The notes under the pieces: generated by a model
Told to the model about the DNA's origin: nothing
Seen by the model: only the letters and a program-made list of their open reading frames with translations
The model's database searches: none
Source of the DNA: a plasmid
DNA length: 64,000 nt
Reading direction: 5' to 3' (one strand)
Sequence record: NZ_CP118944.1
Program-made: the position numbers and the translations under genes
Shown: piece after piece, positions 8,818 through 34,250 of the stretch
Numbering within the stretch: the stretch's first letter is position 1
How the letters are laid out: each line of letters opens with the position of its first letter

Positions 8818-10597
8818 TAGAGGTACGCTACGCCCATGTCAAGAAGATAGTGTGAATTGGGATAGCACACAGAACCTGATGATTGAAGGTGATAATTTAG
8901 AGGTGCTAAAGCTGTTGCAAAAGAGCTACAGCGGAAAAGTGAAGCTCATCTATATTGACCCACCGTACAACACAGGTAAAGATTTTGTTTATCCTGATAA
9001 TTTTCAGGATAATGTTCAGAACTATTTGGAATTGACAGGGCAAACTGATGGCAATGTTAAGTTAAGTACAAATACTGAAACCAGTGGGCGTTATCATACT
9101 GACTGGTTGAACATGATGTACCCGCGTTTAAAGTTGGCGCGTAATTTACTTTGTGATGATGGGGTCGTTTTTATTTCAATTGATGATTCTGAAATAGAAA
9201 ACCTTAAAGTAATATGCAATGATATATTCGGTGAAGATAATTTCATTTCAACAATATCACGGGTTATGAAAACTGGTGGGGCCAAGGGGAATTTCTTTAC
9301 TCCTAATGTTGAGTTTATTTTGGTTTATGCAAAAAAAATAATAAATGCAACTCATTTTAGAGCCCGGATAGGGGGGGAGCAAATAGCCACATATTATAAT
9401 AAGGTACAAGTCGGTGGAGAACGTGACGGCGAAGTCTATGGTGAGGAACGGTTATATAAAGCAAGCTTGGATGCAAGAGCAAATCAGCGCTATTGGGTTA
9501 AATGTCCTGATGGTTCTTTTGTTATTCCTCCGGGATCAACATTTCCTGAAAAAACTCAAGATGGAATACAAGTCACTCCGGAGCGTGGTGATGGTGTTTG
9601 GAAATGGACTTACGCTAGATATAAAGAGGAATTCTCTCAAGGTAATATAGTTTTTAAAGAAACAAGTACCTCTGCTCTTTTGGATGAAAATGGAGTGAAA
9701 TCAAAATACAACATATACAATAAACTTTGGTTGAAAGAACAGCAAGAAAAAGGTATGGTCCCAGGCAATCTAATTAGTAAGTGGGAAAATCGACAGAGTT
9801 CCGCAGAACTAAAGGATTTGGGGATACCGTTTGACTTTGCAAAACCTACCAATCTTATTAAGTATATTATTGAAATTGCCAGGGTTAATGAAAGTGATAT
9901 TGTTATGGATTTTTTCGCTGGTTCTGGCTCTGTAGGTCATGCAGTATACAAATACAATATTGAAAACTGTTCAAATTTACGTTGTATCCTTGTGCAATTG
10001 CCTGAACTTCTCTCTAGGGAGAATAAAGAGCAAAAGCAAGCTTATGATTTTTGTGTTAAGTATAAAAAATCATTTTCTATTGCTGAGCTTACCAAAGAAC
10101 GCCTCCGACGCGCCGGAGCTAAAGTCAGCGCTGACAATCCTGACTGGCAAGGTGATACCGGATTCCGCGTATTTAAGCTCGATACCTCAAATATTCGCCC
10201 ATGGTCGGCAGATGCCGCGTCGTTGGATGCACAGATGCAGGCCAGCTTGTCACCGCTGCTCGAAGATCGCTCACAGGATGATGTCATGACAGAATTGCTG
10301 CTCAAGCGCGGCATTGATTTGAGTGTCCGTCTTGAAGTGCGTGACTTTGATGGTTTACGCGTGACCTGCGCTGGTAATGGGATGTTGTTTACCTGTCTTG
10401 AATCACATATTCCTGCTTCTTCCATTGAAGCTCTGGCATCAGGGTTAACTACCTGGCATCGCGAGCTAGGGGGGAGTGCTGATGCGGTGTGTTATTTCAT
10501 TGATGAAGCATTTGAAAATAATGTTGCCAAGTCCAACCTCTGTGCCACGTTGGTGCAGCAGGGCCTCAACCAATTGCACAGTCTGTAAGGGGGCAAG

Positions 10598-13500
10598 ATG
10601 AAACTCCATTTTGAACCCGATCTTGATTATCAACTGGATGCTATTACTGCCGTGTGCGACCTGTTTGCTGGCATGGAACGTTGGCAAAATGAGATGACCG
10701 TACTGGCTCCAGTGCAAGGGGCATTGGCGCTAGAGGGGGCTACAGGGGCATCCCCGGTTAACCCAGAAATACATGATGAGGCGTGGTTACTGGCCAATAC
10801 CCAACAGGTGCAGTTGCGAAATAAACTGCCCCCGGCGGATGAGCTTGTCAGTCGGGATTTCACCGTTGAGATGGAAACTGGGACGGGGAAAACCTATGTA
10901 TATCTGCGCTCCCTGTTTGAGTTGAATCAGCGGTTCGGGATGAGCAAGTTCATTATCGTGGTGCCCTCTGTCGCCATTAAAGAGGGGGTATATAAAACCC
11001 TGCAAATAACACGGCAGCATTTTCAAAGCCTATATGCTGGCATTCCTTACGACTATTATCTTTACGACTCAACAAGGCCTGGAGATGTACGCAATTTTGC
11101 CACCAGTTCTGTGATGCAAATTATGGTAATGACGGTAGGGGCAATAAACAAAAAAGATGTTAACAAGCTCTACCAGTCGAGTGAAAAAACGACTGTTGAT
11201 GAGTTGGATAAACCAATTGACCTGATCCGTGCCACTCGTCCAGTAGTGATTGTCGATGAGCCGCAAAGTGTTGATGGTGGTCTGAACGGTGCAGGTAAAA
11301 CCGCGCTGGAGTCAATGAATTCACTGATTACTCTGCGTTATTCGGCGACCCATACCGATAAGCACCACATGTTGTATCGCCTGGATGCAGTTGACGCTTA
11401 TGAGCGTAAACTGGTCAAGCAAATTGAAGTTGCGGGAATGCAGGTCGAGAACGCCCATAACTTGGCCTATGTGAAGCTCATTTCTATGGAGAACAAACGC
11501 GGCACCATCAGGGCCACCCTTTTACTTGATGTTGAACGTCCACAAGGTGGCGTTCAACGTGAAGAGGTTATTGTTACCGATGGTAGTCGCCTTGATGACG
11601 ATACTGGTCGTGCAGTTTATGCCGATTATCGGATTGGTGAGATACGGCTGGGTAAGGGCGGATTTGTGACTCTCATTACACCGCAGGGCGAGCAGTTTTT
11701 GCAGCCAGGCGACACGGTTGGCGATGTGGAGCCCCTGACACTGCAACGGCATTTGATCCGACGAACTATTCGCGAGCATTTGGATAAAGAGTTGCGCTTG
11801 AACTCGCAAGGTATCAAGGTACTCTCGTTATTCTTCATCGACCGAGTAGACCTTTATCGCCAAGTAAATGAAGATGGCCGTCGTGAGCCTGGCGCATATG
11901 CTCGTGTATTTGAAGACGAGTACCAAGCATTATTGCGTCAACCGCTGTATGCCGCATTGCGTGAGAGCCACCCTGTACAGGCTAGTGAAGTACATGATGG
12001 TTATTTTTCTATCGATAAAAAAGGGGGATGGGAAGATACTTCTGAAAGTAATGCCAGCGGGCGTGATAACGCGGAGCGTGGTTATAACCTCATAATGAAG
12101 AACAAAGAGCGACTATTGAGCTTTTCAAACCCAGTACGCTTTTTGTTTTCGCATTCCGCCCTTAAAGAAGGGTGGGATAACCCCAATGTGTTCCAGATTT
12201 GCAGCTTGCGTGAGATGGGTAGTGAACGAGAGCGGCGGCAGACCTTGGGAAGGGGCTTACGCCTGTGTGTTAATCAGGATGGTGAGCGGATCCGGGATGA
12301 CAGTATCAATATATTGACAGTGGTTGCTAGCGAGGGATATGAAACCTACGCGGAGCAATTGCAGCAAGAAATTGAACAGGAAACCGGGATCAAATTTGGC
12401 ATTGTTACATCCACTGCATTTGCTCACTTACATATGACGATGGTGAATGGTGCCCATGAAGCGCTTGGGGCCGCAGGCTCTAATGCCCTCTGGGAAACGC
12501 TACAAGCGGATGATTATCTTAGCCGTACGGGTAAGGTAAATGATGCTCTTAAGGTTGCTCTACGTGATGCTCAGCTCACCTTGGCTCCTGAATATGAACC
12601 ACTGCGCTCTGAAATTGAACAGATCTTGAGGAAAAGCGCTGGGCGTTTGCGGATCAGTAATGCCGATGAGCGTGTCGTTATCTCTCCACGACAGGCTGTG
12701 TTGACGTCGGAGGCATTCAAACAGTTGTGGTCTCGCATTTCTCAAAAAACACAGTATCGACTGGACTTTGATGAAGAGATGCTGATCGCAGATTGCACTG
12801 CTTCATTACGTGCAATGCCGCTTATCACTCGTGCTCAAATACAGTTCAGTAAAGGGGCATTGTCTTATACCCGTGCAGGATTGGATATGCGATCAATGCC
12901 AGGAGCAACCAGTAGTCAAGTTGATGATATTGCACCGGTACTTCCAGATATTCTTGGGGTGCTTCAGGATAAAACAGGGCTTACTCGACGAAGCCTATAT
13001 CAGATATTGACTGACAGTGGCCGGTTGCGCGATTTTGTAAAAAACCCGCAACAATTTTTGACGGAGGCGATTGGTCGCCTCAATGGTTGTAAGCAACGAG
13101 CCGTTGTTGATGGGATCAAATACTACCGATTGCCGGGGGCGGTGTACGCACAGACACTCTTCACCGATAAAGAACTGACTGGGTATACCAAAAACTTATT
13201 CAATGCCGCAGCAGGAAAATCAGTGTACGAGCAAGTACCACTGGATTCACAAGGAATTGAGCGAGAGTTTGTTCAACATCTTGAGCAGCAAGATGAAGTG
13301 AAGCTTTACGCAAAGTTGCCTGGCTGGTTCAAAATCCCGACCCCGTTGGGGAGTTACAATCCTGACTGGGCGCTGGTTATTGAGCGGGATGGGGTTGAGC
13401 AGGTGTATTTTGTGGTAGAAACCAAAGGCACCCGTAACTTGGATGAGTTGCGTTTAACCGAGAAGGCTAAGATTACCTGCGGTGAGGCTCATTTTGCAGC

Positions 13501-14398: not shown

Positions 14399-16325
14399 AG
14401 TAAGTAATTCCATTGTATACTTTCAAAGCACTTACTCTATTTCACTAATGAAACGGGATTTCTGCTGAAACCTAAGATCACCCCAAGGCATCATTCTCTG
14501 CTTAGGATAAGACACGTACAACCAACGCTTCGCTCTCGTCACCGCGACAAAAGCGTTATTCCGTTCCTCGTCAAGCTCTTTGACCGTCCTAGCCCTGTAA
14601 TCAGGAAAAACCCCTTCGCACATCCCTATCAAAAATACAATATCCTTTTCTAAACCTTTCATCGTATGCACAGTACTTAGGGTTAGGCCTTCATCTATAC
14701 TACTTTCAGAAAGTTGGCCTAATGCCAATGCATTTCTAAATGCAACCAATGAATCACCTAAGCCTTTACGCTTGAATCGGGTCCACGTACTACTAAACTC
14801 TTTAAGCTCTTCAATACTCAGTTTAACGTCTTCTATTTTATCATCCGAAACACCGTTATGGTTTTCAACCAACGATGTAAGAAGTTCATTAAAATCCTTT
14901 ACTAGTTTGGGGATTTTAGGGTTTTCAATATCTAAGTTGTCAATAGCAACAAGAAGTTTTTCGAATATCGTAGAGTACTCATCTAATGCTGATGAAATTT
15001 GAGATGCCATTTCCCGCAATACATTCGTTGTCCAGTTGGCTGGCTCAGAGATACTCAGTACTTGGCATAACTTTTTCCCATCTACCCAATCTTTAGAATT
15101 CAACTTCACCCTAATGGCATAGTCTAAGACCTTTCCGAATCTAGTTGACGGCTCAAGCTGCCTTTCTCCTTTTCTCAAAGAGTAAGGTATCGAATTATCT
15201 TCAAGGCATTTTTCAAGCTTGCCAAAAACAAATCGATTGCGGCCAATCACTACCATATTACCTAATGATATTTTTCCTTCAATATCATCGTGAATTTTTA
15301 ATGCCAAAAGATTCTTTATCGTGGCAACAACCGCAGTAGCTTCATCCTCTTCAGAATTATATTCTGAAATGCTAACTCCACCCTCTAAGGCATAATCAAT
15401 CTCTGCTTGTGAGCCTGGCCGCAACTTGTTTGCCGCACGAATAACCGACTTAGTACTGCGATAGTTTTCCTTCAGCTCAAACTTTTGAGGCATAAAATCG
15501 TTAATGAAACTTGAGCAGAAGTAGTCTTTTGATGACCCATTAAACCCATAAATCATTTGATTAGGGTCTCCTACCATCAGAATGCTTTTTATCACATCAC
15601 CGCAAAGCACCTTGATAAACTCATACTGTGCTTTATTAAGATCTTGGGCTTCATCAACACAAACATGTTTATACTGTGAGCGGTATATTTTTGCGATCCA
15701 GTCGTACGTGAGCAGTATTCGATGGGCGTACACTAAAATATCGTCATAATCGATACCCCCACTATTTAGTAGTGCAGCTTGATAGTCCTGATATATTTTC
15801 CAAATATTATTATTTTGATATAGCTCAATGACTTCCAACTCTGTAAGCAGCTCCCTTTTTATTTTCGAAAATATATCCATATAGGATTGAAGATTTCTTT
15901 CCCTGTTTTTTAGTTCCTTTGAATCGGTAATTGCTAGATATTCATCTATATTAGTGCCATCTTCACGTAAAGATTGTATAAAGACTTCCATTCGGTCTTT
16001 ATCTCTATCATATATATGCAACTCCGATGGCAAACCAACGGTATGGCCATATTTCTCCAAAACACGCTGTGCGACCGAATGAATTGTGGCGATCCAAGTT
16101 CTGTTTTCTACTTGTTCGAAGTCGATTAAACGCTCACTCATTTCTTCTGCAGCTTTATTCGTGAAGGTGAGTGCGATAACACCGTCTTTTTTTGTTTTCT
16201 CCAAAATATATCGAACACGCTCTGTTAACACTCGCGTTTTACCAGAACCTGCTGATGCAAGTACTTGAATGGCTGTATCCATAGGAGCCTCAACGATCTG
16301 GCGCTGAGCATTTGATAGATTCATA

Positions 16326-21798: not shown

Positions 21799-22087
21799 TC
21801 TCATCTCCCTCTTTTATCCACTGGGTCAAATACTAGCCCTAGCACAACGTCTATATCCCAGACTCCGTGCATTAAAGCCCACATCGCTCATGTCGGCGCT
21901 CGTCAACGTGTGGGCAGTTTTGGCACTGATGCCGGGGCTGTGCTGATGGAGAGAATAAAGCGCGGGGCGAAAGCCCCACTGAACACTCACGGAAAACTTA
22001 GATGGTGTAGGGGAGGGAGAGTTATCCACAAATTCGGTGCAAAAGTGACCCCATTAGCTGTGCATGAATTCGGCACGGGGGAGGCAA

Positions 22088-22156
22088 CTGCCGCGCTATC
22101 GCTTGCCTGCTGGCTTGTTCGTCGCAGCGAAACGATGCCGCGCCTCAAAGCCCAGC
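22088..22156 (+). repeat. Short repeated element (~70 bp, REP/MITE-like), copy 1 of 3
   Basis: CTGCCGCGCTATCGCTTGCCTGCTGGCTTGTTCGTCGCAGCG…CCTCAAAGCCCAGC. Near-identical copies at 25197-25264 (inverted) and 50210-50277. Confidence 0.6.
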
Positions 22157-22588
22157 CGCTACTTGCCGCTATCTGCTCAGAATTGTGATCTCAATCAATT
22201 TAACCATACCACTGGTACGGTATGGTGTTTGTACACGGAGATACCTAGCTCGTAATAACAGGCATACCCGTTGTGCAAAAAGAAAACCCCCTGCGCTAAC
22301 AGGGGGCAGCACGTAAACCCGTTCCAGGAGTAAACATGACCACTCACAGTAACAAAAAGCGGGGGATACGTCTAATGGACGTTCCTCACATGCCCGCCGA
22401 ACAGGCCATCATATTGCTCATGCAAAAAGCGGCCTGGGTCAGGGAGGCAATGGCAAAACATTGTTATCGCCAGATATCACAGCACAGATAACGTGAAATA
22501 CAAAATAGGCGGGATACCCGCCTATTACATTTATTTTCTTATTAAGGTGAAAATACTTTAACCGTCCCAGTGGTATGGTATAATTGTT

Positions 22589-23119: not shown

Positions 23120-23482
23120 ATGTCTGAACATAAAGCTATCTACGATGTCACTGGCCTGGATTGTTCTATCGAGGAATTCAAAATGCGGCCTTGTGTCCGA
23201 CACCGCTATTCGCCTGAATTTGTGCTGCCTACGCCGGATGAAATCAAGTTTGTCCGTACTGCCTTGTTAGGCTGGCCACAAACCAAGCTAGGGGCGTTTT
23301 TGGGCTATCCCATCGATCCAAAAGGTTGCCCGACAGTCAGGCGCTGGGAGCGCCCTGTTGATACAAACAATCATCGCGCTATTGAATACAACGCCTGGCG
23401 GCGCATCTTGCTGGCGGCGGGCGTGATTGAGGGGGTGGAGGATCTACAGATCGCCGACCGATATCTCGAGTTTATTGGGTAA
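23120..23482 (+). CDS. Hypothetical protein (120 aa)
   Basis: ORF 40 nt downstream of radC-like gene; no family recognised. Confidence 0.35.
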   Translation: MSEHKAIYDVTGLDCSIEEFKMRPCVRHRYSPEFVLPTPDEIKFVRTALLGWPQTKLGAFLGYPIDPKGCPTVRRWERPVDTNNHRAIEYNAWRRILLAAGVIEGVEDLQIADRYLEFIG

Positions 23483-23488
23483 ACGACC

Positions 23489-23689
23489 ATGGTGACATTC
23501 GACTATCGGAGCGGCATTTTGGAAGCTGCTGATACCAAGACTGGCTATGAATGGTGTTGGTTTAAAGGGGACTCGGAGATAACGAGAAGTATTGAGGGGG
23601 AACTGGCCGGTTCGCTCAGTGTGCCCCCCGGTGCGTCGGTTGTGGCCGTTAAAACGATCATTCGTGGTGACGCCAGGGTGAGAGCGTGA
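23489..23689 (+). CDS. Hypothetical small protein (66 aa)
   Basis: Short ORF, its 3' end overlaps the IS transposase gene end. Weak. Confidence 0.2.
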   Translation: MVTFDYRSGILEAADTKTGYEWCWFKGDSEITRSIEGELAGSLSVPPGASVVAVKTIIRGDARVRA

Positions 23690-24857
23690 ACATTTTGTTA
23701 AATTTCACCCAGTTTTTTGAGACCGCATTGAGTACCGTTTCCAGATATTCACTGCTCATTCCTGCGATTTTTTGCTTCCGTCTTACGCTCGCCTTGCGTG
23801 AAGTCTCGGCCCTGAGCATGTTCAGCCCCATGTGCCGGATGCACGCCAAAATCTCTGCGGCATCACCGCGATAAATCGGGCAATCATCCTCGCCCATCGT
23901 GACGTCCAGCACCCAGTGCAGGCTATTTTCGATGGCCCAGTGCCCACGCACCGCTCGCGCAAACTCATCCTGCACCAACGCTTTGGAACTGATGAAATAA
24001 CGCTGCTCTATGGTAATTTTTTGCATATTTTCAACGCGATAGGAGATGGCCACGCCAATGCTGTGCAACTGTTTCCAATGAGGAAACTGGGCGGCCAACT
24101 CGCCCGCCGCCATGACATGGTACTCACGACCATCGATGCGGCCATGAGCCTTCTCAAGCGTCATCGTCTCTGCGCATAACGGGGTGGCCGCCAGCGGGGC
24201 GAGGGCCTGTCGAACCGCCTCGAACAACTTGGGTTGGTTGCCTTTGACGGCCAATAAGTAATCGCCACCTTGCTGAAGGATGGTCTCGGCGATCTCGGTC
24301 TGGCACCCCATCGCATCGATGGATACCAGGCAGCCTTTGATGTCGAGCAGCGCCAGCAACTCGGGAATAGCGGTAATTTCATTGGACTTGGCGTCGGTTT
24401 TTATCTGTCCGAGCACCAGCTTATTGGCGGCGGCATAGGCACTGACCATGTGAATGGTCGACGTTCGATCCTCACGGTCATAGGAACTGCGCAGGGTTTT
24501 GCCATCGATAGCGACCAGGGCGCCATCGGTGTGCTGGTTAATGGCTTGAGTCCACCGCACAAAGGCGGCCTGAAACGGCTCTGGTTTGATGCCGGAGATG
24601 ATCCTGGCAATGGTGTCATGGACAGGAATGCCGTTTTTAAACAGTCCCTTGGATTGAAACCAGGGAAGATGAACCTCGCCGAAATCCTCAATATCTTCCC
24701 AGCCCTCAGCCCCGCCGATCACGGCACAGACGGTGAGAAACAGGACATCGTAGAAGGGATAATAAATCTTGGCATGCTGGCGAGGGTCGTGAATATTGTC
24801 GAAGAACTGAGCGAAAACGGCATCAATAGACATGAGAGCACTCCTGAAAAGGAGCAT
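23658..24857 (-). CDS. ISAs1-family transposase (H-repeat-associated protein type)
   Basis: 399-aa ORF; the likely start is MSIDAVFAQFFDNIHDPRQ…. This N-terminus and …GHWAIENSLHWVLDVTMGEDDCPIYRGDAAEILACIRHMGLNMLR are characteristic of the ISAs1 family. Confidence 0.8.
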   Translation of the reverse strand: MLLFRSALMSIDAVFAQFFDNIHDPRQHAKIYYPFYDVLFLTVCAVIGGAEGWEDIEDFGEVHLPWFQSKGLFKNGIPVHDTIARIISGIKPEPFQAAFVRWTQAINQHTDGALVAIDGKTLRSSYDREDRTSTIHMVSAYAAANKLVLGQIKTDAKSNEITAIPELLALLDIKGCLVSIDAMGCQTEIAETILQQGGDYLLAVKGNQPKLFEAVRQALAPLAATPLCAETMTLEKAHGRIDGREYHVMAAGELAAQFPHWKQLHSIGVAISYRVENMQKITIEQRYFISSKALVQDEFARAVRGHWAIENSLHWVLDVTMGEDDCPIYRGDAAEILACIRHMGLNMLRAETSRKASVRRKQKIAGMSSEYLETVLNAVSKNWVKFNKMFTLSPWRHHE

Positions 24858-25277: not shown

Positions 25278-25730
25278 TTAACATTGGCTTCTAACATGTG
25301 CGCATGTTCTCTTGATGCGTACCTTATTGTATTCAGATACGAGACGCCTGGCGCGGTCTCTTTGATTCAGGTAAATGAGCTCAATAATCACTAAAGGGAT
25401 CAAATAGATGAAAAAGGCCGCTGTGCTCTGTTCTTTAACTTGTGTCAAGGGACCTGTGATAACCAAGAATAAATATAGTGCGCAGGTAAAGAAGAACGTT
25501 ATAAAGCAACATAATGATATCATCATTTGATAATTCACTGCCGCGAGGTTGTGCCTATTTGCCTTGATATATTTAGCAAGTTTCAATTTATTATATCTGA
25601 AGGCTTTTTTCATCTTGTGTTTGAAAAACAAGAATACGCGAGAAACAATCCAGGCAAAGAATAATGGGAAGCCCATGTTAAACCACCAGGCAGGGCTACT
25701 GAAATTTATAGCTATTTCATTCATGCATAA
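25278..25730 (-). CDS. AT-rich small integral membrane protein (~150 aa; ORF track extends to 25952 through the GC-rich repeat)
   Basis: Multiple hydrophobic segments (FPLFFAWIVSRVFLFF; ISLCCFITFFFTCALYLFLVITG; FFIYLIPLVIIELIY). The N-terminal extension in the ORF track is GC-rich repeat sequence and is probably not coding. Confidence 0.4.
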   Translation of the reverse strand, partial: LCMNEIAINFSSPAWWFNMGFPLFFAWIVSRVFLFFKHKMKKAFRYNKLKLAKYIKANRHNLAAVNYQMMISLCCFITFFFTCALYLFLVITGPLTQVKEQSTAAFFIYLIPLVIIELIYLNQRDRARRLVSEYNKVRIKRTCAHVRSQC

Positions 25731-25824
25731 TATCTCCATGTCGGTGCAATACTGCGCTTTTTGAATCGCTAGATTAGCAGGATCGACATTGCAACTCGAA
25801 TAGTCAAAAACGAACAAGGGGATG

Positions 25825-26248
25825 GGCATGACCGCAAGCGGTCGCGCTGTCATGCTGCGCATCGAGTCGGCGAACTGATGCCGTCTCGACCCTTCGGGTT
25901 TCCATCGCTCATGCCTACGCCTCTGCGAGGCTGCGCGCTCCGCTTGCCGCACCCGTGGCCAGCTCCATCGCGATGTCTTGCCCCTCTAAGCCCTTCACCG
26001 CCAGTCAATCTACACGCCCGGTCGTTGTGACCAGTGTTCGCGCTGCCGCCCTCCTCACCCGTTCGCACTCTCTTCGTTCGCTTGCGCTGCGGCTTGCGGG
26101 GGCGCACTGGTCTCGCCTCCCTTGGTGCGTGTTGATTTCCCTCTTCGCGGCGAAGAACTCAGAGAGGCAAATCAAATCAAGCAACGCAGTAAAGAGCCAC
26201 GGGCGCTGAACACCTAGAGCGCAGCTCAGAATCTAGAGACGCAAATGG
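25825..26248 (+). repeat. ~424-bp GC-rich structured repeat element, copy 1 (intact), directly upstream of a leading-region operon
   Basis: Near-identical to 29979-30368 plus 31531-31562. It contains a near-perfect palindrome GACCGCaaGCGGTC and many internal inverted repeats (CCGCAAGCGG / CGGCTTGCGG, GCGCGCTCCGCTTGCCGC). Confidence 0.75.
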
Positions 26249-26283
26249 GCTCAACCCCCAACACACCATCAGGAGAGGCAATC

Positions 26284-28341
26284 ATGAGTGCAACCATCAT
26301 CACCATGGAAGAGTTCAAAACAGCAGCACAACAAGCCGAGCTGGCCGCCCGGTTTGTCCGCCGCCCGGTGTCTGTGCAGGTGCTCTGGTCCGAGTCTGAC
26401 GCATGGGAGGCAGATCAGCTCCTCAGTTTTGGCGAGTTTGAAGCCCAGGCGCTGGCCGTGGCCATGGCTCACGCCGCTGGCGGGTATCTCAAAACCAAAA
26501 TCACGGTCACCTTTGATGATGGTAAAACCTACACGGCCCGCATTGACCTGGCTGCAGGCGATGAGCTCTGCTTTGCCCATCACTGCGCGGCCATGCTGCG
26601 CCATTACGAGACCGCCGAGGGCCGCGAATATTACGGCAGCATGGGGCCGGATGCGCTCGCATTGATCGAGTTTGTCCAGGGCGTGGATTTTGGCCGCGCC
26701 GGTCAGCTTATCGATGAGATGGAACAAACCGCCGCACTCGCCGTTACGCTGGCCAAAGAACAAGCCGCCGCACAGGCTGCCGCCAATGAGCAAGCCGCGA
26801 AGCAGGCGTTTAACGCTGACATTGAGCGTCTCGCCAGTGCCCAGGAATACGCCCATTTGACCCGGATTGGTCGGGCTGGCGCGAAAGAGGTGGCCAAAAA
26901 CATTCGCGCCGACCTGAAAAAGGCATGGCCTGCCGTGAAATTTTCCGTGCGCTGCGAGCGTGGCGGCTGGTCTTCGAGTGTGCGCGTGAGTTGGACGGAT
27001 GGCCCCACCGTGGCAGAGGTTGACGCTCTGGTTAACCGTTACGAGGGCGGGCGTTTCAATGGCATGACCGATTGTTACGAGCACAATGCCAGCCCGTTTA
27101 ACGAGGTGTTTGGTTACGTTGATTACCTTTTTACCTCCCGTGACCGCTCTCCCGCACTGGATACCCTGGCTAAGGCCGTGATCTTGCAGGAAACCGGTGT
27201 GGCGGTCACCAGAGATGAAAACCAGCTCATCGAGGGGGAATTTGCCCTGACCCTGATGCACCGCGCTTGCTATCGCATTGGCATCACTCACACCGGGTAC
27301 CAGCTGGATGGTCAGCCATGGACACCTGCCAGCGAGTCGGAACAGCCAGACATGGCCCCCGTTACCCAGCTGCAGCCCGCCAGCATTGAGCCCAAGCCCA
27401 CATTTCGTGCCCATCGCGTGGCCGATGGCTGGACGGTGTCGATCTCGCAGGGCGACCAGCTTCACCGCTTTGAGGGGCTCCAGGCGCACAGCTTTGCCGA
27501 GGCTTGCCGCGTGGCCTGGGCATTGCTGATGCAGACCACCCCACCGGATGATGATCCCGACGGTGGTCAACCGCTGCCGGTGGCGCCGGTCGCCGAGCCG
27601 GTCAATCAGACCATGCAGGGGGGCGAGGCCCCCACTCCTACCCGTGCCGCGCTGCTGGGTGACTATCAGGGCCGTGTCGAAGCAAAGCGCGAGCGCCTCG
27701 AGGGGCGAGCAGGAAAGGCCCAAGACGAAAGCGCTGGCCGTCATGCCGCCGTGCGTTCCATCCTCAGCTGGATTGTGCCGGGTCAGCCGATCCTGGTGGG
27801 CCACCATAGTGAATGGCGACACCGTCGCGATCTGGCCCGGGTCGATCACCACATGGGGCAGGCGGTTGCATTGGCCAGGAAAGCCGAGCACCTGGCGCAA
27901 CGCGCCGAAGCGGTCGGCCAGGGCGGGATCGCCAGCGATGATCCCGACGCGCTGGCGCAGCTGCAAGGCAAGTTGGCCAAGCAGGAAGCCAGGCAACAAG
28001 CTATGAAGGACGCCAACAGGGCAAAGCGCAGCACTTACCAGGCATGGCAGCTCAGTAACAACGGGGCGGAGATCCGCCGCTTGCGCCAACGTATCGAGCA
28101 GCTAAGGGCGTTGCACAGCGCTGCACCGATCGAGCAGGCAGGGCAGGGCTGGCGCATGTTCGAGGATGATGGGCGCATTCAGATCCATTTTGACGGCAAG
28201 CCCGCCGCAGCGTTGCGCCAGCTGTGCAAGGGGGCCGGGTTCGTCTGGTCGCCCAGCCGCTGCGCCTGGGTGCGCAAAGTGACCGCCCGAGCCGTCCGGG
28301 AGGCCCGTCGATTGGCTGGCGCATTGCCTGCAGAGGATTAA
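26284..28341 (+). CDS. Large hypothetical protein (685 aa from ATG 26284; ORF track start 26245); coiled-coil Ala/Gln-rich centre; C-terminal region with GHHSE motif (DUF3560-like, tentative)
   Basis: RBS GGAGAGG 6 nt before ATG 26284. The C-terminal segment DYQGRVEAKRERLEGRAGKAQDESAGRHAAVRSILSWIVPGQPILVGHHSEWRHRRD resembles DUF3560 proteins as remembered. Followed by an orphan MTase, as often seen in plasmid leading regions. Confidence 0.6.
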   Translation: MSATIITMEEFKTAAQQAELAARFVRRPVSVQVLWSESDAWEADQLLSFGEFEAQALAVAMAHAAGGYLKTKITVTFDDGKTYTARIDLAAGDELCFAHHCAAMLRHYETAEGREYYGSMGPDALALIEFVQGVDFGRAGQLIDEMEQTAALAVTLAKEQAAAQAAANEQAAKQAFNADIERLASAQEYAHLTRIGRAGAKEVAKNIRADLKKAWPAVKFSVRCERGGWSSSVRVSWTDGPTVAEVDALVNRYEGGRFNGMTDCYEHNASPFNEVFGYVDYLFTSRDRSPALDTLAKAVILQETGVAVTRDENQLIEGEFALTLMHRACYRIGITHTGYQLDGQPWTPASESEQPDMAPVTQLQPASIEPKPTFRAHRVADGWTVSISQGDQLHRFEGLQAHSFAEACRVAWALLMQTTPPDDDPDGGQPLPVAPVAEPVNQTMQGGEAPTPTRAALLGDYQGRVEAKRERLEGRAGKAQDESAGRHAAVRSILSWIVPGQPILVGHHSEWRHRRDLARVDHHMGQAVALARKAEHLAQRAEAVGQGGIASDDPDALAQLQGKLAKQEARQQAMKDANRAKRSTYQAWQLSNNGAEIRRLRQRIEQLRALHSAAPIEQAGQGWRMFEDDGRIQIHFDGKPAAALRQLCKGAGFVWSPSRCAWVRKVTARAVREARRLAGALPAED

Positions 28342-28738
28342 CCCCTGTGCCTTCTCATCAGCCCCGGCTTGCTGGGGCTTTCCCCTATAGACAAGGCTGG
28401 GCGCTCGCGCCCGCTCTTTGTTGCTGCCGGGTGACTACCGTTGGTTCTGCCCCCTGGTGCCTCCTGGCACGTTGTGGGGATAACCGTTTCTGAATAGAAG
28501 TGCAAAGCCCTGCCCCGAAAACCCTGCTGCCCTCTGCCATCGTGCAATGCCCCGCATTGCGGGACGCAAACAGCCTTCAAGCGGCTTTCGCGGCATATCC
28601 TCGCCGCGAAAAGCATACGGCTGCGGTATTCCACGTCCGCTTGACCCGCTGCGATGCATTGCGTGTTGGCCTCGGGCAGCAGGGAATGGCAACCATCCCG
28701 GAGACCTCCTGCCGCCCTTCTATGACGAGGCCAATACC

Positions 28739-29383
28739 ATGTCACGATTCATGTTGGGTGATAGCGTTCAGATCATGTCTACGTTTCCAGATGCTGCAGT
28801 GGACTTCATTTTGACCGATCCGCCGTACCTGGTCGGATTTAAAGACCGCTCCGGGCGATCGATTGCCAATGACGTTAATGATGAATGGGTGCTGCCTGCC
28901 TTTACGCAGATGTATCGGGTGTTAAAGCCCCACTCGCTGGCGGTGAGTTTCTACGGCTGGAACCGGGTCGATACCTTTATGGCCGCCTGGAAGCAGGCCG
29001 GGTTTCGGGTTGTCGGTCATCTGGTGTTCACCAAGTCCTATGCGTCCAAAGCGGCCTTTGTCGGCTATCGCCATGAATGCGCTTACCTGCTCGCCAAAGG
29101 CCGTCCCCAGGTGCCCGCGCAGCCGTTGCCGGATGTGATGCCCTGGGCCTACTCAGGTAATCGACACCATCCCACCGAGAAGCCGGTGAGCGCGTTGCAG
29201 CCCCTGATAGAGTCATTTACCCGTCCGGGTGACATTGTGCTCGACCCGTTCGCAGGCTCCGGCTCTACGTGTGTGGCGGCGGCCAAGTGTGGGCGGCGCT
29301 ATATAGGGATCGAGTTGCTGCCGCATTATCACCAGGCAGGGTTAAACCGACTGAATCTGGCCAATGGACTGCGGGCCGCATAG
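28739..29383 (+). CDS. Orphan DNA methyltransferase (N6-adenine/N4-cytosine, beta-class motif order)
   Basis: 214 aa from ATG 28739 (MSRFMLGDSVQIMSTFPDAAVDFILTDPPYLVGF…). DPPY motif IV precedes motif I DPFAGSGSTCVAAAKCGRRYIGIE. No adjacent restriction gene. Confidence 0.8.
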   Translation: MSRFMLGDSVQIMSTFPDAAVDFILTDPPYLVGFKDRSGRSIANDVNDEWVLPAFTQMYRVLKPHSLAVSFYGWNRVDTFMAAWKQAGFRVVGHLVFTKSYASKAAFVGYRHECAYLLAKGRPQVPAQPLPDVMPWAYSGNRHHPTEKPVSALQPLIESFTRPGDIVLDPFAGSGSTCVAAAKCGRRYIGIELLPHYHQAGLNRLNLANGLRAA

Positions 29384-29397
29384 GGGAGGGGAAGAAG

Positions 29398-29637
29398 ATG
29401 CGAGAACTTGAAACACGGTTAGGCGACATGGCAAAGCAAGCCCTTGAACTGCTCAAGACCATGGAGGCGGTCAGAATGGAGGCCAACGAGGCAAGGTTGG
29501 CAGGGACAGGCGTCGAGCCCGTTGAGCGGTTGTTGCTCCACCTGATCATCGAGGAAGAGGGGGCCGTGCGGTCGGTAGCGAGAAATCTGGCAACCTGGCA
29601 GCACTTGACCTGTCATCAACCCGAGTCAGTCGAATGA
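29398..29637 (+). CDS. Small hypothetical protein (79 aa, MRELETRLGDMAKQALELLKTMEAV…)
   Basis: ATG preceded by GGGGAGGGGAAGAAG RBS-like sequence. Predicted helical/coiled-coil. Confidence 0.35.
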   Translation: MRELETRLGDMAKQALELLKTMEAVRMEANEARLAGTGVEPVERLLLHLIIEEEGAVRSVARNLATWQHLTCHQPESVE

Positions 29638-29770
29638 CATCGATTTACCCAAGCCTCAGCCTTCGGCTGCGGCTTGGCCGCCTTACAGGCGGTTAGGCTC
29701 CGGGGGCTGTTCCTTCAATATCACTTTTTAAGCCTGGTGCTTGCTCGATGGTGTGACCGGGTGAATCATC

Positions 29771-29924
29771 CTGGTCTGCTGGGTCTGCTGGGTCTGCTGG
29801 GTCTGCTGGGTCTGCTGGGTCTGCTGGGTCTGCTGGGTCTGCTGGGTCTGCTGGGTCTGCTGGGTCTGCTGGGTCTGCTGGGTCTGCTGGGTCTGCTGGG
29901 TCTGCTGGGTCTGCTGGGTCTGCT
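29771..29924. repeat. Tandem array of a 9-bp unit (GGGTCTGCT) x ~17
   Basis: Perfect period-9 repetition seen directly. Translates as (LLG)n / (QTQ)n / (ADP)n in all frames with no convincing start/RBS, so it is treated as non-coding. Confidence 0.9.
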
Positions 29925-30370
29925 CTCCCCTTATCAATCAAATGCCGTTTTTGATGGTTCAATTTTACAAAATGACTTGGGCATGACCGCGAGCGGTCGC
30001 GCTGTCATGCTTCGCATCGAGTCAGCGAAAAGATGCTGTCTCGCCCCTTCGGGTTTCCATCGCTCATGCCTACGCCTCTGCGAGGCTGCGCGCTCCGCTT
30101 GCCGCACCCATGGCCAGCTTCATCGCTCTGCCTTGCCCCTCTAAGCCCTTCACCGCCAGGCAAATTAACACGCCGGTCGCCGCTGCCAGTGTTCGCTTCG
30201 CCATCTCCTCACCCGTTCGCACTCTCTTCGTTCGCTTGCGCTGCGGCTTGCGGGGATGCACAGGCATCGTCTCCCTTGTCGCGTGTTGTTTCCCTTTCTT
30301 GCGGCGAAGAACTCAGAGAGGCAAATCAAATCAAGCAACGCAGTAAAGAGCCACGGGCGCTGAAAACCTA

Positions 30371-31528
30371 AATAGCTGTTCCGAATAGTAGATCACCGGA
30401 GGAAGGGAACTCAGTCCAGTTTGTGCGATCTGATTAGTCGCTAAACAAAACAAGCCACACCCAAAGGACTGAGTTGATGCCTATCCTACCACCTCTGCCA
30501 CGACCACAACGGCGCCGCATTCACAAAATCATCCATGCCACCCGTGATAAAGGACATGCTCGTCGCTTGATGGCCATCTTGCTGTTACATGAAGGACGCA
30601 CGATCACCGATGTTCATCACCTTACCGGCGCTGCGCGCTCGACCATCGGTCGTTGGCTTCGGTGGTATCGAGATGAAGGCATAGATGCGCTAGAAGCCTT
30701 ACCGGCTGGCCGTGCCCCAGTCTTACCTATCGCCAAGATTGTCACCCTACTGGTGCTGCTCATGCAGTTTTCTCCGCAAGATTTTGGTTATCAGCGCAGC
30801 CGTTGGTGTACTGAACTATTGGCTATAAAAATCAATCGGTTAACAGGGCTCAATGTGGCAGCCTCCACGCTCCGCCGATGGTTACCTCGTATGGGCATTG
30901 TCTGGCGCAGGCCCGTGCCGACCTTGCGGATAAAAGACCCAGCCTATCAGGAAAAAATGGCGAATATCGACGCCGCGCTGGCCCGCTGTGATGCCGATAA
31001 TCCGGTGTTTTATGAGGATGAAGTCGATATAGACCTCAATCCCAAATTAGGAGCCGACTGGATGTTCAGAGCGCAGCAAAAGCGGGTTGTCACACCGGGG
31101 CAGAATGCCAAGCATTATCTGGCAGGCGTTCTCCACGCAGGCAACGGAAGGGTACTTTACGTCAGCGGGATCAAGAAAAACTCATCGCTGTTTATTGCCA
31201 TGCTGGAAAAGCTGCGCCACCACTACCGACGAGCCAAAACCATCACGTTGATCCTCGATAACTACATCATTCACAAAAGCAAACAGACCGAGCGATGGTT
31301 GAAGAAGAATCCCAAGTTCTGCCTGGTGTTCCAGCCAGTTTACAGCCCTTGGGTTAATCACATAGAACGGCTATGGCACAAGTTACATGAAACCATCACG
31401 CGCAATCATCAATGCAGAGGGATGGCAAACCTGCTGGCCCGAGTGAAACACTTCATGGATACCGTGTCTCCTTTCCCGGGGAATGGCTATGGCACAGCGA
31501 AGGTGTAGCACTATTGGGATCAGTTATT
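30371..31528 (+). mobile_element. IS630-family insertion sequence, copy 2 (identical to copy 1, same orientation), TA duplication in CTAG
   Basis: 1158 bp, flanked by TA at 30369-30370 and 31529-31530 within a CTAG that is intact in the uninterrupted repeat copy. Confidence 0.88.
30474..31508 (+). CDS. IS630-family DDE transposase (copy 2)
   Basis: Identical 344-aa product to 7763-8797. Confidence 0.85.
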   Translation: MMPILPPLPRPQRRRIHKIIHATRDKGHARRLMAILLLHEGRTITDVHHLTGAARSTIGRWLRWYRDEGIDALEALPAGRAPVLPIAKIVTLLVLLMQFSPQDFGYQRSRWCTELLAIKINRLTGLNVAASTLRRWLPRMGIVWRRPVPTLRIKDPAYQEKMANIDAALARCDADNPVFYEDEVDIDLNPKLGADWMFRAQQKRVVTPGQNAKHYLAGVLHAGNGRVLYVSGIKKNSSLFIAMLEKLRHHYRRAKTITLILDNYIIHKSKQTERWLKKNPKFCLVFQPVYSPWVNHIERLWHKLHETITRNHQCRGMANLLARVKHFMDTVSPFPGNGYGTAKV

Positions 31529-31580
31529 TAGAGCGCAGCTCAGAATCTAGAAAGGCAAATGGCAAAAACAAGGGGCAAAT

Positions 31581-31863
31581 AATGGGCACAAGAAATATTC
31601 AGACCGGTTTTTATGCTTTGCAGTTTGGCAGTTGGCAAAGTTTTGAGGAAGCCGTTAGATGTGGGGCTGACTATTTGATTATGGATGGTATATCAATCAA
31701 TGACAGTTCATCTATTAGCATGGTAATTGATTCGTTATGGATGGCAGAGGCATTAATAAAAGCAATTGGTGCTAAAGATGATTGGAAAATCATTTATTGG
31801 GATGGTTCACGCGTTTTTGAGAGCGACGAAATTGTAAATATATACAACGAGCTAATGGCATAA
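31581..31863 (+). CDS. Hypothetical small protein (94 aa from ATG 31581), low-GC
   Basis: ORF starts ~19 nt after the end of the structured repeat. No family recognised. Confidence 0.4.
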
Positions 31864-32318: not shown

Positions 32319-32723
32319 ATGGATACTTTAATTGCTGGTCTGGTTATTGATTCTAAACGTATGGACATGATGCCTAAATACTTCGGACGCTGGATGATGA
32401 AAACTGAAGGTAACATTTATGGCTGGATGAAAGAAATCTGCGCATCGTACAGCGGCGGTTATTGGGATATGTGGGAGGTATCGAATGGTGCGTTCTTTAT
32501 GGTCCCCCCTTTGAAAAAAGAAGGTTACACGCTATCAATTAATGGTAATGGTTTTGAGGGGGTGTTGACTGCCCACGCTACCGGTGTTGTGGCTTGTCTT
32601 TTTGCATACTATTACATGTGGGAAATGACAGACGATGATCTCTTTGTAAGACTCTATCACGCACTTCGTGAATATGCATTGACGTTAGAAGAGCATAGTT
32701 TGATTTTTAGCGCATTAGATTAA
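32319..32723 (+). CDS. klcA: KlcA/ArdB-family antirestriction protein
   Basis: 134 aa. MMPKYFGRWMMKTEGNIYGWMKEICASYSGGYWDMWEVSNGAFFMVPP…INGNGFEGVLTAHATGVVACLFAY aligns motif-for-motif with RK2 KlcA (…PTYFGPRLMM…YAWMRRLCERYNGAYWHYY…GGFYMAP…VNGNGFRGELSADAAGIVATLFAL) as remembered. Confidence 0.8.
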   Translation: MDTLIAGLVIDSKRMDMMPKYFGRWMMKTEGNIYGWMKEICASYSGGYWDMWEVSNGAFFMVPPLKKEGYTLSINGNGFEGVLTAHATGVVACLFAYYYMWEMTDDDLFVRLYHALREYALTLEEHSLIFSALD

Positions 32724-33205
32724 TCAGGTTTGCTTCCCTTGCTGTTATTTGGCCCCTGATGTTTGGGGCCTTTTTTGATCTCGTCATACGTGAGCTTGAC
32801 CCGTTCGGCGTACCATTTACGTTTTTCTGCCTGCTTGGCTGATGTGGAAAATCCAGCATAGTAAGCCCCTACCGCGTCCCAATTATACCCCATCCGTTTA
32901 ATGGCGTGTGCCATGTAATAGGCTCCCGTGTAAATATTCAAACAAGGATCATTGTATAGGCCCATTGGCGTGATCCCGAATTGTGCCAATTTGGCGAAGT
33001 GCTGGGAATGAATTTGCATTAATCCAACGGCATATTTTGTATCGGAGACGACATTCAAGGCGCGGGGGTTAAAGCTGGATTCACGAAAGGCCGTTGCGCG
33101 TAGCAAATCAGGGTCAATACGGTAAGCCTGCCCCGCCATATCGAAACAATCGGCAGCCATGACGGCGGGACTTAGCAACATGACCAGCGGCAACCATCTA
33201 TTCAT
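32720..33205 (-). CDS. Lytic transglycosylase (SLT domain; F orf169/P19-like conjugation-associated muramidase)
   Basis: 161 aa from ATG 33205 (MNRWLPLVMLLSPAVMAADCFDMAGQAYRIDPDLLRATAFRESSFNPRALNV…GLMQI…). Signal peptide plus SLT catalytic region. The ORF track extends it upstream to 33529, probably spuriously. Confidence 0.8.
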   Translation of the reverse strand: MNRWLPLVMLLSPAVMAADCFDMAGQAYRIDPDLLRATAFRESSFNPRALNVVSDTKYAVGLMQIHSQHFAKLAQFGITPMGLYNDPCLNIYTGAYYMAHAIKRMGYNWDAVGAYYAGFSTSAKQAEKRKWYAERVKLTYDEIKKGPKHQGPNNSKGSKPD

Positions 33206-33313
33206 CGCATCCCCCTTAAACAAGGCAACCAGTTTGCCAGTAAATGAGATGGCGAGCAAATGAACAATAGGCATTTTCCCCTTTATCACCGGAAAGGGTA
33301 ACGAGCAAATTGC

Positions 33314-33462
33314 ACGGCGAACTGATGCCGTACAATTCCCCCGTCCCCCTTTCCTGACATCTCGCCACGCAATAGGAAAAGACAACCTTGTTTCCTCTGG
33401 AAAAACAACCCGCAAAGGATAACTCGCCAATTTTACGGCGAACTGATGCCGAAAAATTCCCT
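33314..33462. promoter_or_regulatory. Two 28-bp direct repeats (ACGGCGAACTGATGCCG-nAnAATTCCC) at 33314-33341 and 33435-33462, upstream of the lytic transglycosylase gene
   Basis: Seen in sequence. A third copy of the 16-nt core is at 25868-25883 inside structured repeat copy 1. Confidence 0.5.
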
Positions 33463-33529
33463 CGTCACCCTCTGCGGTCATATACCGAGTCAACCAAAGC
33501 ACGATATTTATAGATAGCCTACTCATCAA

Positions 33530-33881
33530 CCATAAGACTCCACACCCGTAGCAAATCTGCGATTTGCAGATAAATCATTTAAAATCATCAGATTAAGCTA
33601 ACTCTTACGGTGTTATTTAGCGTTTTGGACACAAAACAACAGTGCAAGCACCGTGCTAGCACCGACAAAGCACGGCGCTGCTAGCGGTGCAAAAGCATAT
33701 ATCAATAATATCAATGAATTATGAGCTGCACGGTGGATGCGCTGCCAACGTAAATGCTTGGGCTCCAAGAAAGCTGCGCAGCTACATGGCGGCGTATGCA
33801 CGGCTATCCTTTAGAGTCCCTAGCGGTGCATGCACGGTCATGGTACATTGTGATGTTGCTATTTTAAATAGAGGTTAGCAA
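33530..33881. promoter_or_regulatory. oriT: Candidate oriT / traM control region (TGCACGG direct repeats x4, inverted repeats GCACCG-CTAGC / GCTAGCGGTGC, AT-rich tract)
   Basis: Location between the transglycosylase gene and traM, as for F-like oriT. The sequence ACGGTGTTATTTAGCGTTTTGG loosely resembles the F nic region GGTGTGGTGCTTTTGG. Nick site not determinable. Confidence 0.35.
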
Positions 33882-34250
33882 ATGGCAAAAGTAACGGTTT
33901 ACTTGAAGAATGCTGTTATCGATGAAATAAAGGGATTGGTCGAAGAAGATATTCAAGCTGGCGCGCATCCAGACGAGGTTAGCTTTTCAAGCAAGACCAG
34001 TATGTTATTGGAGTTGGGCTTGCGCGTTTACAATCTTCGCCGCTCTGAACATGCAGGAAGTGGTCACGATGAGTTTGACCGGATGCTGCTATCCGGAGTT
34101 CTTGAGGCAAAGTACCTGACCCAGTTTTTAACCAAAACGTTGGGGGAGGCAAATGGTATCGACGTGGCGGCAATAAAGGAAAAGGTGAAGGGAACCATCA
34201 AGAACGATATGGAGCAATTTTTCCCTTCCACTGATGATCAAGAAAGTTAA
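33882..34250 (+). CDS. traM: Relaxosome accessory protein TraM
   Basis: 122 aa. MAKVTVYLKNAVIDEIKGLVEEDIQAGAHPDEVSFSSKTSMLLELGLRVY… versus F TraM MAKVNLYISNDAYEKINAIIEKRRQEGAREKDVSFSATASMLLELGLRVH…; C-terminal …ERFFP… is also conserved. Confidence 0.8.
   Translation: MAKVTVYLKNAVIDEIKGLVEEDIQAGAHPDEVSFSSKTSMLLELGLRVYNLRRSEHAGSGHDEFDRMLLSGVLEAKYLTQFLTKTLGEANGIDVAAIKEKVKGTIKNDMEQFFPSTDDQES

Follow-up and report, generated by a model that had tools for sequence, protein, structure and literature searches.

Probable class 3 (ssp3) single-strand promoters in the leading region of an Aeromonas plasmid and a structurally conserved family of relatives in Proteobacteria

Single-strand promoters determine the plasmid genes that act in the opening minutes after entry, the period during which restriction and other defences operate. 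Before late 2025 the Frpo type alone was known, and two further classes have been reported just for IncI1 and F plasmids of Escherichia coli. Wen et al. (Nucleic Acids Research, 2025; PMC12672017) profiled transcripts of the plasmids pESBL (IncI1) and F in fresh transconjugants and distinguished three classes: class 1 (Frpo/ssi), class 2 (upstream of klcA and ardA) and class 3 (upstream of the M.EcoGIX methylase operon). Starts mapped in transconjugants by 5′ RACE (rapid amplification of cDNA ends) agreed with the predicted hairpin promoters, and the class 3 start at the pESBL locus lay inside the hairpin, in the sense direction; early induction in transconjugants and silence once the DNA is double-stranded were shown for pESBL and F alone (PMC12672017). 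The classes have been named ssp1, ssp2 and ssp3 (Fraikin et al., 2026, preprint). Here, we describe a composite element that occurs twice in a stretch of 64,000 nucleotides (the window) from the plasmid sequence record NZ_CP118944.1, the best public matches of which are Aeromonas salmonicida plasmids typed MOBF/MPF_F, such as pAsa5. We consider it probable that each copy is a class 3 (ssp3) single-strand DNA promoter carrying a distal accessory structured module and, by analogy with the E. coli plasmids, that it most likely works on the entering single strand only.

The element is a direct repeat of about 426 bp, the two copies of which are about 89% identical by repeat search (25823-26041 aligning with 29978-30196 at 89%, 26051-26232 with 30205-30386 at 88% and 26215-26248 with 31529-31562 at 94%). 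When its two halves were used as separate queries against plasmids, the repeat proved to be a composite of two modules, A and B, which also occur separately. It is module A that connects the locus to class 3. A profile hidden Markov model of the module A core, built from copies in Aeromonas, Serratia, Pseudomonas, Xanthomonas and PromA-type plasmids, had its sole pESBL match upstream of the operon for DUF1281, a hypothetical protein and M.EcoGIX (E 5e-6), and it also matched the corresponding place in F (E 3e-5). A covariance model, R1, built on 35 relatives, none of them from E. coli, scored 67.2 bits (E 4e-16) on the pESBL class 3 locus (L013 3274-3409) and 60.5 bits (E 3e-14) on the F counterpart (L002 4658-4793), both alignments spanning all 130 model positions; in the window it scored 95.6 bits on copy 1 (25989-26119) and 101.7 bits on copy 2 (30145-30273). 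Given these matches and a methylase in the operon after copy 1 that is 72% identical to M.EcoGIX, we regard module A as a homologue of the class 3 promoter in a syntenic position; judged by sequence, the element is class 3 (ssp3) and not Frpo. Single-sequence similarity is too low to reveal this kinship (nhmmer searches of the window with the single pESBL sequences of classes 1, 2 and 3 gave no match), and the link is accordingly carried by profiles and the covariance model. Homology to class 3 is joined here by a leading-region position with the transferred strand as template and by a stem-loop that rebuilds −35 and −10 hexamers.

The likeness to ssp3 extends to an apex core (AAGCCGCAGCGC ... 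CGGGTGAGGA), a closing stem and a mini-hairpin of the GCGNAGC type, to a −35-like TTG/TGG followed 15-16 nt on by a −10-like TAnnnT in the 3′ arm, and to a setting in the leading region upstream of an operon with an M.EcoGIX-type methylase. There are also differences. The Aeromonas stem runs about 60 bp below the promoter, and the predicted leader measures about 140 nt, compared with about 40 nt in pESBL; the TTG of the −35 is TGG here, with a compensating partner; the second copy precedes an operon of the KlcA type, served in pESBL and F by a class 2 promoter; and module B, attached distally here, is absent from pESBL.

A preliminary description of this DNA, made from the sequence alone, had placed both copies in the region expected to enter a recipient first, next to anti-restriction genes, and the surrounding layout bears this out. 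To the right of a KlcA-type gene lie a minus-strand SLT gene (32720-33529), a 350-bp gap and traM (33882-34250), with traI and traD beyond traM, both on the minus strand; the F plasmid has the same order of SLT, oriT and traM. The F nick sequence, GTGGGGTGT/GGTGC (with the slash at the nick), is found on the strand opposite traM, beside the start of SLT, and at the equivalent position and strand of the window stands GCTACGGGTGT/GGAG; the window also has TraM-site-like repeats, GCGCTGCTAGCGGTGC, resembling those upstream of traM in F. Because the F-like nick sequence sits on the minus strand, we take the minus strand to be the one transferred. Everything to the left of the nick near 33545 would then be leading region, as far as sequence comparison can tell, the nick being about 2 kb away from copy 2 and about 7 kb away from copy 1. 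The plus-strand genes point toward oriT, with the transferred minus strand as their template.

Folding singles out that strand. The minus strand of 25815-26260 reached −101.5 kcal/mol (z −2.5, with none of 100 shuffles equally stable), compared with −85.4 kcal/mol (z −0.7) for the plus strand. For the hairpins alone, dinucleotide shuffles gave z −4.2 on the transferred strand versus −0.9 on the complement at copy 1, and −2.3 versus +2.1 at copy 2. When the window's leading region was scanned with a sliding fold, a gap of 10-21 kcal between strands appeared solely at the two copies. Raw sliding-window folding energy, as used by Wen et al., did not single out the elements, since the adjacent GC-rich gene folds equally strongly; the difference between strands did. 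The two-copy, self-complementary element reported earlier is thus confirmed, at about 426 bp and with folding specific to one strand, and the proposed check on both strands yielded a long imperfect hairpin on the transferred strand only, with promoter-like hexamers directed toward the operon.

In module A, the apex of the hairpin holds 25 invariant columns, in 46 and in 35 sequences (CCGnAAGCCGCA-GCGC, a variable hairpin and GnGAnCGGGTGAGGA), and its pairs covary from A-T to G-C. The hexamers stand in the 3′ arm, which would be the non-template strand for transcription toward the downstream gene. In copy 1, the A of the −10-like hexamer falls in an A.A mismatch of the predicted hairpin, with an internal loop just downstream. 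The change from TTG to TGG in the −35 is offset by a compensatory change on the opposite arm (alignment columns 12/111 and 15/108). No consensus sigma-70 promoter was found on the plus strand inside the element. From hairpin geometry and the pESBL analogy, the predicted start would put about 135-145 nt of leader ahead of the ATG at 26284. Coordinates are collected in Table 1.

Table 1. Features of the two copies and their surroundings, in window coordinates.
Feature	Position	Strand	Basis or remark
Copy 1, composite element	25823-26248	− (functional strand = transferred)	Direct repeat with copy 2
Module B, copy 1	25823-25948	−	Profile match, E 1e-27
Module A, copy 1: long imperfect hairpin, ~260 nt	25949-26206	−	Folds, strand z-scores, covariance model
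−10-like TAGATT, copy 1	26007-26012	−	3′ arm, 15 nt past the −35-like hexamer
−35-like TGGTCA, copy 1	26028-26033	−	3′ arm; aligns with family TTGnnn
Invariant apex core of module A	26052-26097	−	CCGCAAGCCGCAGCGC, variable hairpin, GTGCGAACGGGTGAGGA; invariant columns, covarying pairs
Predicted mRNA start, copy 1	26140-26150	+	Hairpin geometry; analogy with pESBL
Copy 2, main part	29978-30370	−	Module B 29977-30103; module A hairpin ~30105-30362
−10-like TAATTT, copy 2	30162-30167	−	Spacer 16; both As bulged in predicted fold
−35-like CTGGCA, copy 2	30184-30189	−	3′ arm
IS630-family insertion in copy 2 leader	30371-31528	+	TA target duplication, transposase ORF
Copy 2, last 34 bp; leader tail in common with 26215-26248	31529-31562	−	Repeat alignment
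Candidate F-type nick site, GCTACGGGTGT/GGAG	~33540-33552	−	Comparison with F oriT, same gene layout

A pattern scan of one genome per species gave 63 loci, which together with plasmid loci brought the collection to 76 instances of module A and 31 of module B. Relatives come mostly from Gamma-, Beta- and Alphaproteobacteria, and a single plasmid often bears several copies (six in a Serratia IncI-like plasmid; six also in Xenorhabdus). With folding done as DNA and the transferred strand of each relative taken to be the inferred one, that strand folded better than its complement in 49 of 51 non-redundant relatives, by a mean of −11.3 kcal/mol (p 8e-10), and mean shuffle z-scores were −6.4 on the transferred strand versus −3.5 on the complement (p 6e-4, dinucleotide shuffles). 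The 5′ arm of a relative formed 68 pairs on average with its own 3′ arm and 23 with the 3′ arm of another member (p 8e-10). When a stated structure of 27 pairs, set by hand, was applied to a trimmed alignment, 83.7% of cells were paired, compared with 30-40% when the partner was slid, and 125 cells showed double changes, compared with 45-63 in the slid controls; none of 500 shuffles attained the observed values. RNAalifold on a 300-nt MAFFT alignment recovered the apex pairs alone; as it recovered so little because the arms were misaligned, it was replaced by the per-sequence arm-swap tests and the trimmed alignment.

Hexamer conservation follows the same strand. At a fixed distance after the core, the 3′ arm of the family reads TTGnnn, then 15-17 nt, then nAnnGT, and it has a higher sigma-70 score than either the equivalent plus-strand stretch or two controls (p 9e-6 to 4e-4). 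Among 47 instances, the −10-like hexamer has A at position 2 in 44 and T at position 6 in 43, and the position-2 A is unpaired with a mean probability of 0.75, against 0.1-0.3 for its neighbours. In promoters recognised by sigma-70, the non-template A at −11 and T at −7 are the bases flipped out on opening; an A that is unpaired beforehand is to be expected of a promoter made to work as a hairpin.

In annotated plasmids, the operons that relatives immediately precede are those of ardA, ardC, parB-like, DUF932 and methylase genes and some unknown ones, all of them aimed at oriT and the relaxase; distances to the nearest open reading frame (ORF) support a position before genes, although this measure is soft, relying on naive ORF calls in GC-rich DNA. 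The relatives were found in conjugative plasmids and in regions resembling integrative and conjugative elements (ICEs), nearly all in one orientation. Among plasmid records with a match, 455 of 537 are conjugative; module A alone matches 268 plasmid records, and its centre is best conserved. A blastn search of 5426 complete E. coli genomes with the element found no chromosomal place and just two weak plasmid matches, both to module B. In one PromA-type plasmid (L009 6198-6295), a module A-like core sits inverted between kfrA and a small ORF, with nearly no strand asymmetry and few cross-arm pairs.

The covariance model also reaches class 2. It scored 29-31 bits (E ~1e-5) on the class 2 loci upstream of klcA and ardA in pESBL (L013 7100-7297 and 14047-14244) and upstream of klcA in F (L002 8483-8681). 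Class 2 (ssp2) shares GGAAGCCGCAGC, CCGGGTGA, GCGAAGC and CCCTTGCAT-15-TAAGAT with the R1 family and precedes KlcA/ArdB-type genes, as copy 2 does; it differs in a 78-nt apex insertion and in lacking the GAGGA part of the core. In F, class 2 stalls complementary-strand synthesis where its predicted stem ends, whereas ssp3 does not (Fraikin et al., 2026). The scores of about 30 bits and the common core motifs suggest that classes 2 and 3 form one superfamily, a kinship not noted by Wen et al. (PMC12672017).

On the evidence from pESBL and F, from which we infer activity in Aeromonas, the start and the silencing, events at this locus would run as follows. The minus strand would enter the recipient 5′ end first from the nick near 33545, toward lower coordinates, so that about 2 kb would precede copy 2 and about 7 kb copy 1. 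Before the complement is made, module A would fold into its hairpin of about 260 nt, the 3′ arm of which, as non-template strand, would present a paired −35-like hexamer, a spacer of 15-16 nt, a −10-like hexamer with an unpaired A and an internal loop. Host RNA polymerase with the main sigma factor would bind and, starting near 26140-26150 in the case of copy 1, transcribe along the 5′ arm, from which the template of the downstream genes follows without a break. Early products would be the LPD/DUF3560 protein and the M.EcoGIX-like methylase after copy 1 and those of the KlcA-type anti-restriction operon after copy 2. Transcription on the entering strand would stop with complementary-strand synthesis, which would remove the hairpin and silence the promoter.

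Both copies stand just before plus-strand operons, as had been reported. Copy 1 ends 35 bp before the ATG at 26284 of a 685-aa protein with LPD25, LPD29 and DUF3560 domains (Pfam); copy 2 ends 19 bp before the ATG at 31582 of a 93-aa ORF, which is followed by a 120-aa ORF and an Antirestrict-family, KlcA-type gene (32319-32723; Pfam). The insertion sequence (IS) had been put between the second copy and its operon; it is in fact inside the repeat, 34 bp short of the repeat end. This insertion of 1158 bp has inverted ends, duplicates the TA at 30369-30370 at 31529-31530 and carries a 344-aa plus-strand ORF (30474-31508) with DDE_3 and HTH domains (Pfam), features by which we assign it to the IS630 family. 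It falls beyond the base of the hairpin in copy 2, downstream of the predicted start, and is co-oriented with the operon. The earlier suggestion that it uncouples the operon starting at 31582 from copy 2 is possible but, given that position and orientation, not certain: the predicted promoter of copy 2 is intact despite the insertion, and transcripts from it would run into the IS, which lengthens the leader and may itself be transcribed. If so, the co-oriented IS630 transposase would be transcribed on each entry into a host, coupling its expression to conjugation.

Other observations concern the surroundings. Copy 1 occupies a divergent intergenic region, to the left of which a 149-aa minus-strand ORF (25278-25727) diverges from it without a Pfam match; a Pfam search of the divergent ORFs left of copy 1 returned no family. 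Just upstream of copy 2, at 29773-29925, the 9-bp unit GGTCTGCTG occurs about 17 times in perfect tandem. Public annotation of pAsa5 lays a hypothetical protein over module B of copy 2 (L001 23934-24317), and that of pMHAA012 places the start of ardC inside the hairpin (L009 2412-3944); such coding calls over the elements probably reflect ORFs or start codons called in error. A third intergenic region with strong structure, 28345-28745, immediately precedes the methylase gene (z −5.1 for the minus and −5.7 for the plus strand) and contains a 35-nt inverted repeat (28522-28556 / 28650-28684). Its 3′ part, approximately 28569-28732, is conserved upstream of the methylase in pESBL (L013 4609-4769) and F (L002 5993-6153); the region matches neither module A nor module B.

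Module B is built differently from module A. Its conserved purine-rich blocks, CAAGCGGAGCGCGCAG, GGAGGCGTnAGnGATGGAAG, CGAGAC and GCTCGATGC-GNA-GCAyGAnAGC, are separated on the transferred strand by five small hairpins with GCA, GAA, GTA or GNNA loops. Compensatory changes occur in one stem (GCCTC/GAGGC, GCGCC/GGCGC, GGCCCTGC/GCAGGGCC) and in a second (TGC/GCA, CGC/GCG, GGC/GCC). Loops of the form C-GNA-G are unusually stable in DNA; no such stability is known for their complements (TNC). Long-range pairing between the blocks was considered and rejected, no covariation being visible by eye, and no promoter-like hexamers were found in the module. It occurs at 1145 places in 564 plasmid records, 504 of them conjugative, and also in an ICE-like region of large IncHI plasmids. 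It is distal to the hairpin here and in the Pseudomonas and Mesorhizobium copies. The IncN leading region of R46 (L005) has three module B copies (22047-22166, 23759-23882 and 26264-26387), one of them beside stbC and two about 100 nt past the distal end of CUP repeats; in R46 and pCT14 the module stands at the end of stbC without a following gene. In F (L002), truncated module B-like sequences, GCGTCAGGGATGGAAGCCCGCCAGGGCGGAGAC...CACGACAGC, at 10104-10173 and 15503-15561 lie about 95 nt distal to each Frpo copy (10267-10613 and 15657-16003). Module B starts with an invariant CAAGCGG and, being a set of hairpins, may bear some relation to primosome assembly sites (ssi), hairpins with an AAGCGG box at which priming of single-stranded DNA depends on PriA or primase; a literature search on this point returned only unrelated oligonucleotide listings. 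Our best guess, which would fit these positions, is that module B serves as a priming site or as a barrier or insulator for single-strand events.

The preliminary description had likened the element to the Frpo/ssi elements of F and ColIb. The single-strand promoter model stands, and the logic is alike, in that a transferred-strand hairpin rebuilds a promoter before leading-region operons, several times per plasmid; kinship with Frpo/ssi does not, the element belonging by homology with class 3. Frpo/ssi repeats (F ssiD; ssi1-3 of ColIb-P9) measure about 330 nt, and the Frpo apex is A+T-rich and UP-like, whereas that of the present element is G+C-rich and invariant. Comparison with Frpo revealed no sequence similarity: nhmmer searches of the window with ColIb Frpo1, F ssiD and the pESBL region upstream of ssb found nothing at E up to 1, and the element itself had no match in the F leading region. 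In the set of Samuel et al. (Nature, 2024; PMC11541004), the module A core, AAGCCGCA...GAACGGGTGAG, can be seen by eye in Frpo*1, Frpo*3 and Frpo'4, and the 3′ ends of Frpo*2, 5, 6 and 7 carry, likewise by eye, the module B motifs GATGGAAACCCG ... GCATGACAGCGCG. There, the Frpo* sequences are low-certainty candidates picked by hexamer consensus in three islands and not a defined family (supplementary file 4), and the search for known Frpo/ssi was restricted to intergenic regions of 50-350 bp.

Several other accounts of the repeat deserve weighing. DNA processing could be its main role, with the hairpin acting as a priming site or a roadblock for complementary-strand synthesis and the hexamers serving only for primer RNA. 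Frpo transcripts do prime DNA synthesis, class 2 of F stalls the complementary strand (Fraikin et al., 2026) and is related to this family by the covariance model at about 30 bits, and module B, devoid of promoter hexamers, is found in 564 plasmid records and beside stbC without a following gene. We nevertheless find this account unlikely as a main role: the closest relative, ssp3, has promoter strength and no roadblock activity (Fraikin et al., 2026), and the elements lie directly upstream of operons in nearly all instances. The two roles are not exclusive. Slimmer still are the chances of an ordinary double-stranded regulatory repeat, akin to CUP, in which a repressor-bound promoter/operator would be the functional unit and the hairpin a by-product of palindromic operators. 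The CUP repeats of IncN R46/pKM101, about 445 bp long and ending at the start codons of ccgAI, ardA, ccgD and ardB, are known before leading-region genes and described as ArdK-bound and ArdK-controlled double-strand promoter/operators; module B lies near two CUP copies in R46, and copy 1 stands in a divergent intergenic region. The R46 CUP upstream of ardA had no nhmmer match in the window, though, and covariance model R1 found nothing in R46, which shares just module B with the window, and that outside the CUP repeats proper (e.g. 23209-23653). The element has no plus-strand sigma-70 consensus inside it, and its conserved hexamers are on the strand aimed away from the gene in duplex form. Palindromic operators would also fold alike on both strands, whereas the complements here fold no better than shuffles (−0.9 and +2.1).

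A structured RNA, either an antisense RNA of minus-strand sequence or a structure in the mRNA leader, is highly improbable. An RNA of minus-strand sequence would give the same strand asymmetry, which depends on G-U pairs; but the mRNA-sense strand folds no better than shuffles, and the loops are GNA triloops or GNNA loops closed by C-G, which are especially stable in DNA. Nothing relevant was found in Rfam, at gathering score for the whole window or at E up to 5 for the element, and the homologous pESBL locus has its mapped start inside the hairpin in the sense direction, according to Wen et al. (PMC12672017). A miniature inverted-repeat transposable element (MITE) spread among plasmids, the outcome to which scattered chromosomal copies would have pointed, has a next to negligible probability. 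The repeat is multi-copy, GC-rich in AT-rich flanks and modular, with modules that occur separately; yet its ends bear no terminal inverted repeats or target duplications, its orientation relative to gene and oriT is fixed in nearly all instances (the inverted PromA-type core excepted), and copies within one plasmid have diverged with compensatory stem changes. The preponderance of conjugative plasmids and the absence of chromosomal places in the E. coli genomes tell against it as well.

Several points also weigh against a class 3 single-strand promoter. By double-strand standards the hexamers are weak (TGGTCA-15-TAGATT and CTGGCA-16-TAATTT), and a 15-nt spacer is short. They were chosen by score among three spacings, so that the letter counts given above are partly selected; the unpaired probability is unselected. 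The near-invariant TTG changes to TGG, together with its pairing partner, in the Aeromonas/Pseudomonas subtype; as the change is compensated on the other arm, pairing may count for more than the letters of the −35. The promoter model leaves the invariant apex motif unexplained. At the sequence level, the pESBL link is visible with profiles and not with single sequences, and activity of this sequence, and in Aeromonas, is a prediction by analogy. Our −35, −10 and start may differ from those of Wen et al. Finally, since the minus-strand hexamers of module A point toward the ORF at 25278-25727, they could serve as a duplex promoter for that gene.

Beyond the class 3 assignment, we make a tentative joint proposal, which we think rather less likely to be right than wrong: that the apex, CCGnAAGCCGCAGCGC ... 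CGGGTGAGGA, is a factor-binding site and that module B is a new transferred-strand element. The apex is common to classes 2 and 3 in plasmids and ICEs of Gamma-, Beta- and Alphaproteobacteria, and sigma-70 hexamers do not explain it; a factor, either of the host or co-transferred, may bind this apex with its invariant GGGTGAGGA. If so, class 2 and class 3 promoters would be factor-dependent. Module B, for its part, may be a so far undescribed element of five GNA-looped mini-hairpins in at least 564 sequenced plasmids. The promoters that it accompanies differ in class, being class 3 in the present plasmid, Frpo in F and CUP in R46, and it may serve either for priming or as an insulator or barrier that governs the time each promoter spends single-stranded.

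The probable class 3 promoters described here place a plasmid of a fish pathogen, Aeromonas, in a class reported until now from E. coli plasmids, and class 3 itself emerges as a large family, conserved in structure, that spans plasmids and ICE-like elements from many Proteobacteria. The family signature and the link between classes 2 and 3 go somewhat beyond the searchable literature that we found. Module B adds a companion that is unexplained and testable. The signature, which combines a covariance model with an invariant apex and with a bulged A in the −10, lets early-expressed anti-defence operons be annotated where Frpo searches find nothing.

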